DNA from: a virus
Lineage: Duplodnaviria > Heunggongvirae > Uroviricota > Caudoviricetes
Direction: 5' to 3' (one strand)
DNA length: 44,153 bases
Virus record (IMG/VR): IMGVR_UViG_2541047916_000003
The position numbers and the translations under genes were made by a program. Positions 3,550 to 12,785 of the stretch are shown piece by piece (position 1 is the first letter of the stretch; each line of letters starts with the position of its first letter). The notes below the pieces were generated by a model that worked only from the letters and a program-made list of their open reading frames with translations, made no database searches and had not been told where the DNA came from.

Positions 3550-3804
3550 CTACTGGCACTGGCTTGGCATATATAGCGGCTGAACATACCAACCCTTTGA
3601 TAACCAACTGTCAGCAATGTTTTTACTCCTCGTTATTGCCGGAATACCTAAGCCATTGTCTGAATGCAGCCATGCCACCGGATTCTCTTCCAGCGATGCC
3701 AGAGCAATTTCATAAGCCCGGCGCTCAACATTGTCTCGCACATCCAAACTGCTGATACGCTCTTTGATTTCTTTAATCAGTTCTTTGTCGGTAAAAGTGC
3801 TCAT
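3550..3804 (-). CDS. hypothetical protein (84 aa)
   Basis: ATG at 3804 overlaps the stop of the Ea22-like gene (ATGA); shares an IALASLE motif with the 2051-2791 product. Confidence 0.45.
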   Translation of the reverse strand: MSTFTDKELIKEIKERISSLDVRDNVERRAYEIALASLEENPVAWLHSDNGLGIPAITRSKNIADSWLSKGWYVQPLYMPSQCQ

Positions 3805-3805
3805 A

Positions 3806-4570
3806 TCAATCTCCATTGGTATCAATGTTTACAGCCTGACAAGACTCTTTGAGCACCCAGTCAATAGCGTCTTTCCATGCCTCTGTTTCGACTGGTGGAT
3901 TTTCACGCTTAACCTGTTCATAGAAGCGCACTGCTTTAACCAGTCCTTCCGGTACTACTGGTGATGGCTGTTTAGCTTCTAAATCAGCAATTCTGTCAAC
4001 CACGGCATCGACAGCATCTGAAAAGCCGAACCAGTTGCTCCACTCCGGCTCATCCCCGGTTGCTGCAAAGTACATATCTGCTAAAGCAGATTCAGCATGG
4101 TCACGCTCGTTAATGAGTTGCTCTTCGCTTTTCTCCAGTTCAGCAATACGCTTACCCCCATCCGAGATAACACCTTCGTAATACTCACGCTGCTCGTTGA
4201 GTTTTGATTTTGTCTCCTCAAGCTCAACTCTCAGCTTCCCAACAGTAAGAGCAATATCCTCGTTCTCCTGGTCGCGGCGTTTTATGTATTGCTGGTTTCT
4301 TTCCCGTTCATCCAGCAGTGCCAGCACAGTAGCCGGATTGGCTGCGGCGATGAATTCAGCATTGGCCTGCTGTTCCATTTGGAAATCTTCATCGAAACCG
4401 CTTTCTGGATGCGCTCCTTCAATTCTGCAAATGGGAATATATCCAGCAACTTCACGATGAATTAGCGCATAATCACCATCAAATCGGCTCTCTCCATATT
4501 CGAGCGACCACTCACCACACGTTGCTTTTTCTGCCGCTTCACGCAGTGCCTGATAGTTAATTTCGCTCAC
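3806..4570 (-). CDS. Ea22-like coiled-coil early protein
   Basis: 254-aa ORF with a central coiled-coil-like stretch; resembles Ea22-family proteins of lambdoid prophages; GTG start overlapping the upstream stop. Confidence 0.6.
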   Translation of the reverse strand: MSEINYQALREAAEKATCGEWSLEYGESRFDGDYALIHREVAGYIPICRIEGAHPESGFDEDFQMEQQANAEFIAAANPATVLALLDERERNQQYIKRRDQENEDIALTVGKLRVELEETKSKLNEQREYYEGVISDGGKRIAELEKSEEQLINERDHAESALADMYFAATGDEPEWSNWFGFSDAVDAVVDRIADLEAKQPSPVVPEGLVKAVRFYEQVKRENPPVETEAWKDAIDWVLKESCQAVNIDTNGD

Positions 4571-4788
4571 TTCGAACCTCTCTGTTTACTGATAAGCTCC
4601 AGATCCTCCTGGCAACTTGCACAAGTCCGACAACCCTGAACGACCAGGCGTCTTCGTTCATCTATGGGATCGCCACACTCACAACAATGAGTGGCGGATA
4701 TAGTCTGGTAGTTCAGACGACGCATTTTTATTGCTGTATTGCGCTGTAATTCTTCAATTTCTGATGCTGAATCAATGATGTCCGCCAT
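4567..4788 (-). CDS. TraR/DksA-family C4 zinc-finger protein
   Basis: 73-aa ORF with CxxC..(17)..CxxC spacing (CCECG...CRTCASC) typical of phage TraR/DksA-like proteins. Confidence 0.7.
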   Translation of the reverse strand: MADIIDSASEIEELQRNTAIKMRRLNYQTISATHCCECGDPIDERRRLVVQGCRTCASCQEDLELISKQRGSK

Positions 4789-4886
4789 CTTTCATTAATC
4801 CCTGAATTGTTGGTTAATACGCTTGAGGGTGAATGCGAATAATAAAAAAGGAGCCTGTAGCTCCCTGATGATTTTGCTTTTCATGT

Positions 4887-5102
4887 TCACCGTTCCTTAA
4901 AGACGCCGTTTAACATGCCGATCGCCAGGCTTAAATGAGTCGGTGTGAATCCCATCAGCGTTACCGTTTCGCGGTGCTTCTTTAGTACGCTACGGCAAAT
5001 GTCATCGACGTTTTTATCCGGAAACTGCTGTCTGGCTTTTTTGATTTCAGAATTAGCCTGACGGGCAATGCTGCGAAGGGCGTTTTCTTGCTGAGGTGTC
5101 AC
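4887..5102 (-). CDS. hypothetical protein (71 aa from GTG; track ORF extends to ATG at 5168)
   Basis: GTG at 5102 overlaps the stop of the 27-aa peptide ORF (GTGA) with GGGG 9-12 nt upstream; the ATG at 5168 has a poor ribosome-binding site. Confidence 0.4.
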   Translation of the reverse strand: MTPQQENALRSIARQANSEIKKARQQFPDKNVDDICRSVLKKHRETVTLMGFTPTHLSLAIGMLNGVFKER

Positions 5103-5182
5103 TGAACAAGCCCCATGTCGGCAAGCATAAGCACACAGAATATGAAGCCCGCTGCCAGAAAAATGCATTCAGTGGTTGTCAT
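5099..5182 (-). CDS. 27-aa hydrophobic peptide (MTTTECIFLAAGFIFCVLMLADMGLVQ)
   Basis: Hand-found ORF below the track threshold; ATG overlaps the stop of the orf63-like gene (ATGA) and its stop overlaps the next GTG start; single predicted TM helix. Confidence 0.3.
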   Translation of the reverse strand: MTTTECIFLAAGFIFCVLMLADMGLVQ

Positions 5183-5370
5183 ACCTGGTCTCTCTCATCT
5201 GCTTCTGCTTTCGCCACCATCATTTCCAGCTTTTGTGAAAGGGATGTGGCTAACGTATGAAATTCTTCGTCTGTTTCTACTGGTATTGGCACAAACCTGA
5301 CTCCAATTTGAGCAAGGCTATGTGCCATCTCAATACTCGTTCTTAACTCAACAGGAGATGCTTTGTGCAT
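5179..5370 (-). CDS. small early protein, lambda orf63-like position
   Basis: 63-aa ORF with GGGAGG ribosome-binding site upstream of ATG at 5370; same position and size as lambda orf63. Confidence 0.55.
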   Translation of the reverse strand: MHKASPVELRTSIEMAHSLAQIGVRFVPIPVETDEEFHTLATSLSQKLEMMVAKAEADERDQV

Positions 5371-5531
5371 ACCGCCTCCCGTTTATTATTTATCTTCTCA
5401 GCCAGCCGCTGTGCTTTCAGTGGATTTCTGATAACAGAAAGGCCGGGAAATACCCAGCCTCGCTTTGTAACGGAGTAGACGAAAGTGATCGCGCCTACCC
5501 GGATATTATCGTGAGGATGCGTCATCGCCAT
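5343..5531 (-). CDS. small early protein, lambda orf60a-like position
   Basis: 62-aa ORF whose ATG lies within the last codons of exo, as for lambda orf60a. Confidence 0.5.
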
Positions 5532-6202
5532 TGCTCCCCAAATACAAAACTAATTTCAGCCAGTGCCTCGTCCATTTTTTCGATGAACTCCGGCACCATC
5601 TCGTCAAAACTCGCCATGTACTTTTCATCCCGCTCAACCACGACATAATGCAGTCCTTCACGCTTCATACGCGGGTCATAGTTGGCAAAGTACCAGGCAT
5701 CTTTTCGCGTCACCCACATGCTGTACTGCACCTGGGCCATGTAAGCCGATTTTATGGCCTCGAAACCACCGAGCCGGAACTTCATGAAATCCCGGGAGGT
5801 AAACGGGCATTTCAGCTCAAGGCCGTTGCCGTCACTGCATAAACCATCGGGAGAGCAGGCGGTGCGCATACTTTCGTCGCGATAGATGATCGGGGATTCA
5901 GTAACATTCACGCCGGAAGTAAACTCAAACAGGGCTCTGGCGTCGTTCTCGTACTGTTTTCCCCAAGCCAGCGCCTTAGCGTTAACTTCCGGAGCCACAC
6001 CGGTGCAAACCTCAGCAAGCAGGGTGTGGAAGTAGGACATTTTCATGTCAGGCCATTTCTTTCCGGAGCGGGGTTTTGCTATCACGTTGTGAACTTCTGA
6101 AGCGGTGATGACGCCGAGCCGTAATTTGTGCCATGCATCATCCCCCTGTTCGACAGCTCTCACGTCGATCCCGGTACGCTGCAGGATAATGTCCGGTGTC
6201 AT
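5522..6202 (-). CDS. exo: lambda exonuclease (Red alpha)
   Basis: 226-aa translation matches lambda Exo as recalled ([37 protein letters not shown]...); start overlaps bet stop. Confidence 0.95.
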
Positions 6203-8675: not shown

Positions 8676-9257
8676 ATGAACAACTCATGGTGGCAGGAAC
8701 TAATGCATTTTTTCCTGCAAGGAATGACACTTAAACAGTTGATTCATATGCTAATCATCCTGATCATATTGATTATTGTTATGCCGGTAAGCGTAAAAGA
8801 ATGGATAAACCTGCATAGTCCAGAAATCCTTCCTCATTACTGGATGTATTACATCCTGTTGTTTTGCGTTAGCTATGTGCTTAACGGCGTTGTTAATTCC
8901 GCTTATCACGCTGTGACTGAAAGAATTGAGGTATTCGCTGCTCAGAAGCGCAAATCTAAAGAAGAAAAATATGTGCAAGATTTGTTTGATTCGTTAACTC
9001 TTGGAGAAAGAGCGTATTTGGCATTCGCTGTAGCCGCTAATAACCAGCTACAAACGGAAAAGGGCGCTCATGAATCAATTTCATTGCTCAAAAAAGGACT
9101 CCTCGTTCGAAGGCCTCCTGCTGTTGGATATCCTGATACCGACCGTTTCGTTATCCCTGAAAGCTATAGACATGAGTGCTACATTAGGTTTGCCGGGAAG
9201 GCAGACAGCCTTATGGATGAACTTATCGCTCAGGATAAGCATGGCAAAAACAAGTAA
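8676..9257 (+). CDS. sieB: SieB superinfection exclusion protein
   Basis: 193-aa membrane protein; translation matches lambda SieB as recalled; sole plus-strand gene in the pL operon region. Confidence 0.85.
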   Translation: MNNSWWQELMHFFLQGMTLKQLIHMLIILIILIIVMPVSVKEWINLHSPEILPHYWMYYILLFCVSYVLNGVVNSAYHAVTERIEVFAAQKRKSKEEKYVQDLFDSLTLGERAYLAFAVAANNQLQTEKGAHESISLLKKGLLVRRPPAVGYPDTDRFVIPESYRHECYIRFAGKADSLMDELIAQDKHGKNK

Positions 9258-9273
9258 TTAGCAAATGAATTTA

Positions 9274-9546
9274 TCATCTCGCCGTCAGTTGTTTTGATTT
9301 CCGGTAGCCTGCCGCGTAAAGAGCTACGTTCGGAAGACAAGTTGAACCTTCATATTTTCTGGTCAACGTTGTCAGAGTTATCACTTCTGCTCTCATTGCT
9401 GGTTTGAGCTTGCATTGCAAGACCACTCGTGAAGGGGTTGGCCTGTGTAGCTTGTCGGAGCTGATCGCCTCCTGACTTTGCAGATTTGCGCGACGAGCTC
9501 TACGGCGAGAAGCTGCGGTGCCTTTAAATTCTGTTTTTCTGGACAT
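9274..9546 (-). CDS. N: N-type transcription antiterminator (non-lambda; P22 gene-24-like C-terminus)
   Basis: 90-aa product from ATG at 9546 with GGGAGG ribosome-binding site; arginine-rich motif SRRRARRA near the N-terminus; C-terminal VALYAAGYRKSKQLTAR resembles P22 gp24 as recalled. Confidence 0.7.
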   Translation of the reverse strand: MSRKTEFKGTAASRRRARRANLQSQEAISSDKLHRPTPSRVVLQCKLKPAMRAEVITLTTLTRKYEGSTCLPNVALYAAGYRKSKQLTAR

Positions 9547-9730: not shown

Positions 9731-9770
9731 GTTAAATAGTACGATATGTACTTTACAAGATCAATACAAT
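9731..9770 (-). promoter_or_regulatory. pL promoter with OL operator candidate
   Basis: Minus-strand TTGATC-(18)-TATTTA with the operator-like 15-mer AAAGTACATATCGTACT immediately upstream of the -10; same motif found at pR. Confidence 0.4.
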
Positions 9771-9982
9771 TTGTTGTAAGTTGGCGTGGTTTTTTATAAC
9801 GCTTTGTATTTAATAGTGTTGTTTTTTAGCGTGGATGTATTGCCTCGGCGATGTAAGGAGAGATCAGAATTGCGTGGTTTAGTGGGTTGCATCTATTTAT
9901 TTTTCAATAAATATAATTGGTTATGTGTTTTTAGGTGGGCGAACGTGAGGCAAAGAAAACCCGGCGCTGAGGCCGGGTTGTA

Positions 9983-10735
9983 TTATGCTGCAAGTCTCTT
10001 AACCCAAGTCTCTCTTTTGGAGAATGGTAGAACTTGGCTTGATTCATGGAAGAGTAAGGAGAGTTGTTGCATTTGATCACCAATTGCTTCGCTGTCTATA
10101 ACAACAAATCTGTTGTTATACTCCTCACTTGAAGCTTTAAGATCAATTAGTTTCCCAAGCAATGAGTAAGCACTATTCCAGCTTCCTCCGTGTTTCACGC
10201 TTGATGTAAAAACGTATTTAGGTATGTCGGTTTTTATTGTTACAGGGACGGTAATTTGATGTCCACTCAAGCCATATACGTTTTCACGAAGAGAAAGTGC
10301 GTCTCTAAGCTCTGTGTGATATAGATAATCAATAACCATACTTTCAAACTTTTCAGCTTGAACTGGCTGATACCAGTCTAACGACAAAGTTGATGCGAGT
10401 ATACCAGCTCTAATTATGTTCGATGTAATCGCACCGACATCCTTTTCTGTTGCCCAAGCAATGATTTCTCCTCGAGCATTGAGTTCTGCGCCTTCTTTAA
10501 GCAGTAATTGTCGTATCTCATCAAGTCGTTTTTTGGTAAGCGAGATCCCTCTTGCCTCCATATTCATTAAGGCATCGCATCTGTCACTAACTAAATACCT
10601 ACCATTGACTTCACGGATAAAGGCACCGACATGCTCTCCATCATCACAGTAAGTGAATGGACTGATAATTCTCAAGGTCTTGCCTATTGGATGGCATTCG
10701 AAACCTAGTTGTGAGATCACTGTTGAGCACATCAT
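9983..10735 (-). CDS. uncharacterized protein (250 aa), distal gene of a two-gene cassette in the rexAB position
   Basis: ORF on the cI strand; start ATGATG overlaps the stop of the upstream 185-aa gene; AT-rich; no family recognised. Confidence 0.7.
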   Translation of the reverse strand: MMCSTVISQLGFECHPIGKTLRIISPFTYCDDGEHVGAFIREVNGRYLVSDRCDALMNMEARGISLTKKRLDEIRQLLLKEGAELNARGEIIAWATEKDVGAITSNIIRAGILASTLSLDWYQPVQAEKFESMVIDYLYHTELRDALSLRENVYGLSGHQITVPVTIKTDIPKYVFTSSVKHGGSWNSAYSLLGKLIDLKASSEEYNNRFVVIDSEAIGDQMQQLSLLFHESSQVLPFSKRETWVKRLAA

Positions 10736-11289
10736 ATTCCAAACCCCATTTGCCCCGACTCATCTTCAAGCGGTAAAGGTATTCTCCCAGAGTAAGTTAT
10801 GTTCAGATGTTTACAGAAGTAATTCCAATACCCTACCAGGTCATCTGGGTTTATGTCATCTTCGATTGGAAACGCTATTCTATCACTATAGTATCCAGCT
10901 TCTTCATAGTATACATGGTAGTGAGCACCGTAAATGATATCTTGGTACTTCGGATGATCGACCTTGTAACTATTCGTGTGTTTGTCAAAGTGATAGGTAT
11001 CTACCGCGAAAACCCTCTTGTTATGATAGAAAGCAATAATATTTATTTTAGGGTAAGAAATCGGGTCATCAGGTTCTGAATCCTGATCTGGTTTCCATTT
11101 CAGTTCAAACTTTAGCCCTTGTATAGGTATACAATCCTCATCCAAGGGGATGATATGGGCTTGTAGCCACATATCAGAGCGACTTGGTTTCTGTTTCCAT
11201 TTAACGCCAGAAAAGTTAACTATTTTTTTACAATAAAGTACTTTATCAACTTCTACTTGGCTTGGCTGATAATCATCTATTTTTGCCAA
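10732..11289 (-). CDS. uncharacterized acidic, aromatic-rich protein (185 aa), proximal gene of the rex-position cassette
   Basis: ORF begins about 40 nt downstream of the cI stop on the same strand; Tyr/Trp/His- and Asp/Glu-rich; no TM segment; no family recognised. Confidence 0.7.
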   Translation of the reverse strand: MAKIDDYQPSQVEVDKVLYCKKIVNFSGVKWKQKPSRSDMWLQAHIIPLDEDCIPIQGLKFELKWKPDQDSEPDDPISYPKINIIAFYHNKRVFAVDTYHFDKHTNSYKVDHPKYQDIIYGAHYHVYYEEAGYYSDRIAFPIEDDINPDDLVGYWNYFCKHLNITYSGRIPLPLEDESGQMGFGI

Positions 11290-11328
11290 TGTTTACCGCC
11301 CTGTAAATTGTAGATAAAAGTGGTTTCA

Positions 11329-11988
11329 TCACCCAAACGTCTCTTCAGGCCATTGGCTGGCGATAACTTTCCCCACAACGGAACAACTCTCATTGCATGG
11401 GATCATTGGGTATTGTGGGTTTAGTGGCTGTAGAAACACCTGACCGCTATCCCTGATCAGTTTCTTGAAGGTAAATTCATCACCACCAAGTCTGGCTATG
11501 CAGAAATCGCCGGGCTCAACAGCTTGCTCAGGGTCAACCAGAATTAACATCCCGTCAGGAAAGCTGGGTTTGGAACCTGTTGGTGCGGTCATTGAGTTAC
11601 CTTCAACCTCAAGCCAGAATGCAGAGTCACTGGCTTTTTTGGTTGTGCTTACCAATCTCTCCGCATCGCCTTTGGTAAAGGTTCTGAGTTCTGGAGAGAA
11701 CATCCCAGCCTGAACATGAGAAAAAACAGGGTACTCATATTGTTTTTTAACTGGGGCCGATGAGTATTCGCCAACAGGTGAAAATGTCCCGTCGTGGTTG
11801 AATGATATGTTATCAATACCAAGGTATTTAAACACCACACCAATATCACTAAGAGATGGATGACGAGATCCGCGCAACCAGTGTCCAATCCCACCCTGCG
11901 TCATACCTAGCTCTTCGGCTAACTTCTCTTGAGTTATGCCGAGCTCTTTCATTCTGGATCTAGCCAGTTCATACCATTTCATTTTCAT
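11329..11988 (-). CDS. cI: CI prophage repressor (heterologous HTH N-domain, lambda-type S24 autocleavage C-domain)
   Basis: C-terminal ~130 aa match the lambda cI C-domain as recalled (..[29 protein letters not shown]..); N-terminal HTH differs from lambda; ATG at 11988 preceded by AAGGA. Confidence 0.85.
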
Positions 11989-11995
11989 GTCCTTA

Positions 11996-12069
11996 TTATT
12001 ACGCTCTGTACTGGAACCATCCATGCACAATGTGTATTTTTACTTGTATTCGCAAAGTACATATTGTAT
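11996..12069. promoter_or_regulatory. OR operator region with divergent pRM and pR
   Basis: pR candidate TTGTAT-(17)-TATTTT with operator-like AAAGTACATATTGTATT in the spacer; a second related copy AGTACAGAGCGTAAT lies next to the cI start. Confidence 0.45.
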
Positions 12070-12099
12070 TTTTTTATTCGTGTTTACTATGGAGGGCAT

Positions 12100-12353: not shown

Positions 12354-12456
12354 TACGTCGCTGAAAAGCGAGTTCCAAGATATCTGACCAACTAAGGCCA
12401 TATGCGTTTCCACGCATACCTTTCAACTAACTATTCACTATTGGAAATCTTAAGAA

Positions 12457-12753
12457 ATGGAAAGAACAAGTTACAGCAAACTATCACAGCGTGACGTTGA
12501 TCGCGCAGAAACAGATTTACTTATCAATCTGTCAGCTATTACCCAGCGCGGTCTGGCAAAGATGATTGGCTGTCATGAATCGAAGATAAGCAGAACGGAC
12601 TGGAGATTTATTGCTTCGGTCTTGTGTGCTTTCGGAATGGCATCAGACATCAGTCCGATTAGCAGGGCTTTTAAGTATGCGCTTGATGGACTCACCAATA
12701 AAAAACGCCCGGCGGCAACCGAGCGTTCTGAACAAATCCAGATGGAATTCTGA
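12457..12753 (+). CDS. cII: CII transcriptional activator (heterologous N-terminus, lambda-type C-terminus)
   Basis: 98-aa ORF ending ..TNKKRPAATERSEQIQMEF as lambda CII; N-terminal DNA-binding part differs from lambda. Confidence 0.85.
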   Translation: MERTSYSKLSQRDVDRAETDLLINLSAITQRGLAKMIGCHESKISRTDWRFIASVLCAFGMASDISPISRAFKYALDGLTNKKRPAATERSEQIQMEF

Positions 12754-12772
12754 GGTCATTACTGGATCAATC
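12697..12772 (-). ncRNA. oop: oop antisense RNA
   Basis: Minus-strand sequence across the cII 3' end closely matches lambda oop as recalled and ends in the hairpin GCCGCCGGGCG plus TTTTTTATT. Confidence 0.6.
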
Positions 12773-12785
12773 CACAGGAGTCATT

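Follow-up and report, generated by a model that had tools for sequence, protein, structure and literature searches.

In lambdoid prophages the interval between cI and N is a moron hotspot, where accessory genes expressed in lysogens accumulate (PMC7067206), and in lambda the slot that runs from the cI stop codon to OL/pL is taken by rexA and rexB, two genes on the cI strand that are co-transcribed with the repressor, end at the terminator tImm and encode, in RexB, a polytopic membrane partner with four transmembrane (TM) segments. In Salmonella phage BTP1 the defence gene bstA lies directly after cI, with which it forms a single operon transcribed from the cI promoter (PMC7067206), and its product acts at sites of phage DNA replication, self-immunity being secured by an anti-BstA DNA element (PMC7067206, PMC8585504). 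Here we analyse two genes, called A and B, that occupy the same slot in a 44,153-nt stretch of caudoviral DNA (IMG/VR record IMGVR_UViG_2541047916_000003; "the window" below is this whole stretch, and all coordinates refer to it unless a locus number is given). The window is collinear, at the same positions, with Escherichia phage PhiR57_1 (PV340572.1), which was induced from ECOR13, and the cassette region is 100% identical in phages ev207, ev017 and PhiR63_2.

The likeness of the A-B cassette to rexAB covers the slot, the strand, the number of genes, the presence of a tImm-like terminator and, presumably, co-transcription with the repressor, but it does not extend to the proteins, which have other sizes and folds and share neither sequence nor family with RexA or RexB. 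Among the Pfam, PHROG and NCBIfam matches of A and B none at E<=1 is to a Rex family, and we therefore reject Rex homology, in agreement with a first-pass annotation made from the letters of the window; an NCBIfam match to glutathione peroxidase (E 0.15) is meaningless. That annotation had also seen no TM segment in either protein, and the maximum Kyte-Doolittle 19-residue means (0.45 for A, 1.19 for B) bear it out. The pair thus has no transmembrane partner, which argues against a membrane depolarisation of the RexB type. BstA shares the placement behind cI, yet it is a single protein without homology to A or B.

Closer relatives come from computational catalogues and screens. The nearest one catalogued is the PADLOC candidate PDC-M24, which has the same two-protein architecture, although the relationship is remote and distant members of the A-B clade match it equally weakly. 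DS-34, a protective system in which a prophage cI was co-cloned with the downstream gene, resembles our locus in layout, and DS-6 (HipAD), likewise protective, includes a protein, DS-6B, that has a DUF1829 domain in common with B and is proposed to act, without catalysis, as an antitoxin that binds DNA (PMC13092281); DS-6B differs from B in pairing with a HipA kinase, in having DUF3037 and not DUF1828, and in the weakness of its DUF1829 match (0.78). In the literature searched we found no mention of PDC-M24, incidental mentions only of DUF1828 and DUF6978, and, in main texts, nothing relevant under the phage names or protein accessions. With relatives listed as a PADLOC candidate and the exact proteins present in a published prediction table, the cassette is not new to the field; repressor-linked prophage defence cassettes are a known class that it would join.

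Repressor linkage and exchange of the cassette

The first-pass annotation had placed two open reading frames (ORFs) of 185 and 250 aa on the cI strand about 40 nt after the cI stop codon and had joined them by a stop/start overlap, and both observations hold, the spacer measuring 39 nt and the overlap reading ATGA (Table 1); GenBank places the start of B at the second ATG, 10732. As read from the DNA, cI, A and B make up a single unit that runs leftward and meets its first terminator 3 nt past the B stop codon, where a hairpin with an 8-bp stem begins, and equivalent terminators sit after B in loci L003-L009 of the set described below. The cassette fills the interval from cI to OL exactly and on the cI strand, as a rexAB-type position implies. 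The further statement that it ends just before pL/OL stands in so far as the terminator lies upstream of OL/pL and N, but OL/pL itself is about 200 nt farther on. Since a scan for promoters within the unit gave no more promoter-like sites than shuffled sequence, no internal promoter is claimed; A and B are probably transcribed from pRM along with cI, in the manner of lambda cI-rexAB and BTP1 cI-bstA.

The linkage of A and B to repressor genes is far stronger than the first-pass annotation could know. From look-ups of exact proteins plus a single scan each of genomes and viral contigs we obtained 105 loci with B, and in all 105 A lies immediately upstream, adjacent and co-oriented, with its end within the B ORF or at the beginning of it; the 4-nt overlap is present outright in 66 of these loci, and in the other 39 B has been called from an earlier in-frame start. 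A repressor gene adjoins the pair in 103 of the 105. These upstream repressors belong to at least six types and include lambda-type S24 repressors of several sequence families, short Gifsy-type helix-turn-helix (HTH) proteins and HTH proteins of 137-148 aa, and a strong terminator followed by an N-like or early-left region comes after each pair examined. The order repressor-A-B recurs in Escherichia, Salmonella, Klebsiella, Yersinia, Providencia, Xenorhabdus, Pantoea, Izhakiella, Thorsellia, Edwardsiella and Aeromonas, as well as in a Pseudomonas D3-like phage whose A gene is unannotated, and it is kept with A relatives of 21-25% identity in Rodentibacter and in metagenomes (for distant A relatives, gene contexts come from three loci obtained by exact-protein look-ups). 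The clade therefore appears almost dedicated to temperate-phage immunity regions, in Enterobacterales, Aeromonas, Pasteurellaceae and Pseudomonas. Among complete E. coli genomes, 241 of 5426 (4.4%) carry the cassette at >=99% identity, always in the chromosome, and the carriers include the E. coli type strain, uropathogenic (UPEC) strains, NU14 and Nissle 1917.

The DNA is as AT-rich as had been claimed, with a GC content of 39.6% against 50.2% for the window. No other 1.3 kb of the phage is richer in AT, and a GC content this low is reached by just 0.2% of windows of 1307 bp. The flanks of the cassette recur in phages 2G7b and Stx2a_WGPS8 with 93-99% identity on both sides; homology is lost at the cI stop codon (11327/11331) and regained at the terminator (9979/9980), and, judged by these alignments, the cassette is a precisely exchangeable module between those two points. 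In phage Stx1_121427 the same cassette adjoins a different immunity region, a placement that, together with the base composition and a lone chromosomal copy in Chimaeribacter, supports the earlier view of a horizontally acquired moron. What emerges is an autonomous, horizontally exchanged and tightly coupled module that sits within the transcription unit of the lysogen and has its terminator ahead of pL.

The Chimaeribacter arupi copy (CP119395.1, L027 7001-8307) is an A-B pair alone in the chromosome with no prophage genes near, set between a phosphotransferase system (PTS)/glycosidase operon and a gene for a LacI-family regulator, with an upstream gap of about 570 nt. Between the same cI and terminator flanks, 2G7b carries a gene for 283 aa (L023 2309-3160) and Stx2a_WGPS8 one for 173 aa (L024 2076-2597); neither protein has a credible Pfam or PADLOC match, and both are further uncharacterised occupants of the rexAB slot.

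Some loci of the set have features of their own. In Pseudomonas phage VB_PaD_phPA-G (PP083311.1, L026) the unannotated A homologue (4420-5004) overlaps the start of the B homologue (5001-5756), and the gene right after the CI-like repressor (3680-4330) weakly matches the PADLOC candidate PDC-S48. A DUF3024 gene (113 aa, E about 1e-27) stands between repressor and A in eight loci (L003 5044-5385, L005 5053-5394, L006 5052-5393 and five viral loci), which points to a third, optional component or to another cargo gene. An Edwardsiella tarda prophage has, besides its A-B pair, a DUF6979 gene (L028 1040-1417), whose Pfam accession adjoins that of DUF6978. Finally, a 518-nt contig (L010) in an assembly of Actinomadura rugatobispora contains an A/B junction 82% identical at the protein level to the enterobacterial cassette, most likely a contamination of that assembly.

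Proteins A and B

Contrary to the initial impression that neither protein could be assigned to a nameable family, B consists of DUF1828 followed by DUF1829, a member of the PD-(D/E)xK clan, and A is related to DUF6978, albeit with a score below threshold. Both are products of real genes: A matches phrog_2017 (E 6e-67) and B phrog_1960 (E 1.6e-106), the two have homologues as remote as 21-29% identity, and each yields a confident AlphaFold2 (AF2) model; both PHROG families are of unknown function. Profile and structure searches, proposed at the outset as a check, delivered the domains of B and an AF2 fold for each protein, while the fold of A has no solved relative.

A belongs to a tiny family, with 20 proteins at E<=1e-3 in a profile search of 1.84 billion representative proteins. 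It is acidic and rich in aromatic residues, as first described (pI 5.27; 15% aromatic), and its AF2 model has a predicted local distance difference test (pLDDT) of 85.9 and a predicted template modelling score (pTM) of 0.83. The DUF6978 match is partial and reaches 22.0 bits against a gathering cut-off of 29.6, with 5 of 15 relatives matching that family, again weakly; the match to PDC-M24A (E 4.8e-4) covers residues 104-163 only (60 residues), and the relatives match this profile at E 2e-4 to 1e-3 or not at all. A search of PDB sequences with the A profile returned nothing credible, and a designed Kelch protein (8pjr) matched by the profile of distant A relatives is a repeat artefact with no qualifying stretch. 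Down to 21% identity, K22, W31, R92, D97, N106, G121, H123 and H125 are invariant and H104 is nearly so, with E129 joining the cluster in close relatives, and this invariant D/H/N/H/H cluster suggests a metal or active site.

The second distinctive trait of A is its C-terminus. Pol IV (QLVLGL) and MutS (QMSLL) carry known clamp-binding peptides, and A resembles them, as well as SocAB of Caulobacter and MuC of phage Mu, in its terminal Q-x-x-L-(x)-L/F peptide, which in A belongs to a disordered tail; the consensus published for binding to the bacterial beta clamp is QL[SD]LF (PMC12867686). Counting the patterns Q-x-x-[LMFIW]-[FLIMV] and Q-x-x-[LMFIW]-x-[LFIMV] at the C-terminus, we find such an end in 54 of 56 members of the A family and in 1.25% of a background of 1123 ORFs. 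Tails in relatives include QIGLGL, QMSLL and QIPLL, five-residue (QxxLL) and six-residue (QxxLxL) forms between which known clamp-binding motifs alternate as well, and A may by this peptide dock onto the host DNA sliding clamp, DnaN. SocAB and the other clamp-binding proteins differ from A in having no homology to it, and in A clamp binding is deduced from a short motif.

B is the better anchored of the two proteins. DUF1828 scores above its gathering threshold (33.5 bits vs 22), and PDC-M24B aligns with B end to end (E 4.7e-10; residues 2-249 against profile positions 4-254 of 256). The AF2 model (pLDDT 82.6) has two domains, the second of which shows the alpha-beta-beta-beta-alpha-beta arrangement that the DUF1829/PD-(D/E)xK clan requires of a restriction-endonuclease fold; an HHpred assignment to DUF1829 (PDDEXK clan, 98.8%) has been published for this exact protein (PMC13092281) and agrees with the model. 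The C-terminal domain alone has no match in Pfam, and a search of PDB sequences with the B profile gave nothing credible. Across divergent homologues GxSG(H159), P164, T177, G194 and D198(-x-K/R) persist in this domain.

ClpX recognises ssrA-tagged proteins by terminal residues of the LAA/LVA type, and B ends in this way in 45 of 46 unique sequences (LAA in 35, LVA in 10), compared with 0.36% of the background ORFs. A SocB parallel exists here too, in that SocB is reportedly under ClpXP control and, as a toxin, acts through DnaN to block replication. Further asymmetries separate the partners: A starts with GTG or TTG in 34 of 36 unique contexts and B with ATG in the junctions examined, the weak start of A fitting a tight limitation of a dangerous component, and A diverges faster than B in every pair (e.g., 70% vs 83% and 44% vs 64% identity). 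The two proteins presumably act as a complex.

A probable role in prophage defence and the competing explanations

Most likely the cassette is a self-contained accessory operon of the lysogen that protects it against other phages. We put the probability that it is an anti-phage system at about 0.55, a figure that weighs the slot and the synteny together with two independent predictions by computation and a validation rate of roughly 45% for comparable predictions, and the pair would then be expressed with cI and benefit the lysogen by excluding other phages. In the DefensePredictor tables B has a mean log-odds of 5.64 and A one of 4.90, where the stringent cut-off is 4, and both are labelled "Predicted novel defense gene" within one operon of E. 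coli assembly GCF_003334555, from an ECOR-based strain set; 45% of the high-scoring units that were cloned protected against phage (PMC13092281). The accessions of A and B occur only in the prediction tables (S5 and S10) of that study and are absent from its 118 cloned transcription units and from its results Tables S6, S7 and S8, so the pair was predicted there and not tested (PMC13092281), and the literature searched reports no phage-challenge test of A-B. The defence reading of the first-pass annotation is accordingly reasonable and partly supported, but unproven.

As to how such a system might work, we tentatively propose that A is a clamp-parked effector and B its short-lived sensor or regulator. 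The D97/H104/N106/H123/H125 cluster of A would be the metal or active site, and its disordered Q-x-x-hydrophobic-x-hydrophobic C-terminus would tether it to the host DnaN clamp, i.e. to DNA under replication by the host replisome. B, with its chaperone-like DUF1828 and nuclease-fold DUF1829 domains, might restrain A or bind DNA, and its ssrA-like LAA/LVA tail would keep it short-lived. A phage cue would release or activate the pair, with the outcome that replication of superinfecting phages dependent on the host replisome (e.g., heteroimmune lambdoids) is blocked, either directly or by abortive infection; unlike in RexAB, no membrane step would be involved. In its full form, which we regard as doubtful, this scheme would amount to the first anti-phage system with an effector, of a fold without solved relatives, stationed on the host beta sliding clamp by a canonical C-terminal clamp-binding peptide, the host-replisome-dependent replication of incoming phage DNA serving as both address and target, and with a ClpXP-labile DUF1828-DUF1829 partner that gates the effector and switches it off at prophage induction. 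Should the cassette prove protective, it would be a new two-protein system of uncharted mechanism in the repressor-linked prophage defence class. The clamp-type tail of A and the ssrA-like tail of B lend themselves to cheap and specific point-mutant tests, and work on A would assign a function to a fold that has no solved relative.

A number of observations weigh against this interpretation. The anti-phage role of A-B is a prediction from sequence, the pair is missing from the 118 units cloned in the screen, and more than half of those units gave no protection (PMC13092281). PDC-M24, too, is a candidate from computation, and in PADLOC as in Pfam the matches of A are partial and fall below threshold. 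As for the mechanism, the C-terminal peptide of A could instead be a handle for the chaperone-like domain of B, and the LAA of B lies at the end of a predicted helix and may be structural. B has no canonical D...(D/E)xK triad, GxSGH and D198-x-K/R alone being conserved, with H159 at the beta-2 position, no acidic residue on beta-3 and D198 modelled in a helix. Lastly, a repressor linkage as deep as the one described could point to lysogeny control.

That last possibility would make A-B an accessory that tunes the lysis-lysogeny switch, induction or the firing of the prophage origin, for instance through the clamp. The repressor-A-B order persists where identity has fallen to 21% and where the repressor belongs to another family, a depth of conservation unusual for defence cargo that shuffles; the clamp-motif tail hints at a connection with replication; and lambda RexA reportedly modulates the bistable switch as well. 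We nevertheless consider such a role distinctly unlikely: the identical cI/OR/OL region works with wholly different cargo in 2G7b and Stx2a_WGPS8, so that immunity does not need A-B, the pair also occurs where there is no prophage, and it is retained in the defective prophage of Nissle 1917, which lacks int and most pL genes, a retention that favours a function of benefit to the host. A-B might also be a lysogenic-conversion factor that has nothing to do with phages, such as one for DNA repair or tolerance at replication forks or one for stress or colonisation. Repair enzymes are numerous among clamp-binding proteins, an SRAP gene lies near A-B in one metagenomic locus, and among E. coli carriers the cassette is enriched in strains of the B2/extraintestinal pathogenic (ExPEC) type; however, both computational defence screens score the cassette as defence-like, neither protein is homologous to any repair family and the position is the classical exclusion slot (PMC7067206), which leaves this reading highly improbable.

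Two other explanations redistribute the roles of A and B. One takes the tightly overlapping genes, the weak start codon of A, the LAA/LVA tail of B and the lone Chimaeribacter copy as signs of a toxin-antitoxin (TA)-like addiction or stress module, in which A is a growth-arresting toxin, maybe a clamp-binding replication blocker, and B a ClpXP-labile antitoxin; SocB, said to be a clamp-binding toxin under ClpXP control, offers a precedent for A, and DS-6B, the DUF1829 protein proposed as antitoxin of a HipA-like kinase, offers one for B (PMC13092281). This we hold to be rather unlikely, and to the same degree the corollary that the pair stabilises a prophage or island and protects against phages as a by-product of antitoxin decay, given that A and B resemble no known toxin or antitoxin family, are large, possess no recognisable DNA-binding autoregulator domain and adjoin repressors in 103/105 loci instead of being scattered as TA loci usually are. 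Moreover, pRM is off at induction, and decay of B would at that moment free A against the host-replisome-dependent replication of its own phage, which disfavours a simple model whereby the antitoxin decays and the toxin kills. The other explanation, restriction-like direct cleavage, gives the effector role to B, as a nuclease, and leaves A to guide it as a sensor or adaptor. The PD-(D/E)xK fold of the C-terminal domain and the clan membership of DUF1829 agree with it, as do the preservation of D198-x-K/R in 6 of 7 divergent B proteins, the near-invariance of GxSGH and the faster evolution of A, often seen in sensors, and PD-(D/E)xK nucleases are the commonest domain among validated DefensePredictor systems (PMC13092281). 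It is unlikely all the same, because the canonical catalytic positions on beta-2 and beta-3 are non-acidic and D198 falls inside a helix, the invariant polar cluster is more convincing in A, and DS-6B shows that a DUF1829 domain can be non-catalytic (PMC13092281).

Surrounding features and the Nissle 1917 prophage

The features of the immunity-left region are collected in Table 1. Just beyond N, on the opposite strand, lies a homologue of the superinfection-exclusion protein SieB (8676-9257, + strand; phrog_1301, E 1e-121), and with the cassette the region would thus hold at least two exclusion-type functions.

Table 1. Features of the cI-A-B unit and its surroundings, in window coordinates
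Feature	Position	Strand	Remarks
cI repressor, HTH_3 + Peptidase_S24	11329-12030	-	Pfam E 1.3e-28 and 2.1e-10; cI in the PV340572.1 annotation
cI-A spacer, 39 nt	11290-11328	-	Without terminator; Shine-Dalgarno-like GGGCGG 7 nt ahead of TTG
Gene A, 185 aa, WP_001062368.1	10732-11289	-	TTG start; remote DUF6978/PDC-M24A relative
A residues 97-129, candidate metal or active site	10903-11001	-	D97, H104, N106, G121, H123, H125 invariant (family alignments)
A C-terminal hexapeptide QMGFGI-COOH	10735-10752	-	Disordered tail, pLDDT 44; of the beta-clamp-binding motif type QxxLxL / QL[SD]LF
ATGA, A stop/B start overlap	10732-10735	-	Translational coupling
Gene B, 250 aa, WP_000968518.1	9983-10735	-	DUF1828 + DUF1829
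DUF1828 domain, B residues 26-110	10406-10660	-	Type III secretion chaperone / YbjN-like fold
B C-terminal domain, residues 127-250	9986-10357	-	PD-(D/E)xK restriction-endonuclease-like fold (DUF1829); GxSGH159 ... D198-x-K200, non-canonical
B C-terminal L-A-A, ssrA-type ClpXP tail look-alike	9986-9994	-	End-of-protein count
Intrinsic terminator, tImm analogue	9958-9979	-	AACCCGGCC-loop-GCCGGGTT then T run; closes the cI-A-B unit
OL operator-like sequences, with pL for N	9734-9775	.	Inverted repeats I1 + I9, common to OR (12054-12074)
N gene	9274-9546		Pfam search and GenBank annotation

The prophage that Nissle 1917 carries at icd (L025, NZ_CP022686.1 4786142-4795392) is truncated, its integrase being partial and ISEc52 replacing the pL-side genes up to sieB, and it has sieB, N, A-B, cI, cro, cII, O and P intact. 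This prophage contributes to a complete and still-unexplained resistance of Nissle 1917 to lambda and Stx phages, and tests of the other genes of the prophage have been called for (Bury et al., PMC5987069), and the A-B cassette is a concrete candidate for that lambdoid and Stx phage resistance. The same study observed a drop of about 200-fold in lambda and Stx plating with the Nissle 1917 "phage repressor pr" (EcN_1294) (Bury et al. 2018, PMC5987069). The cloning and quantitative PCR (qPCR) primers given there for EcN_1294 map to the cII homologue (window 12411-12780; cII gene 12457-12753) and not to cI, and the reported drop may reflect cII over-expression driving lysogeny.

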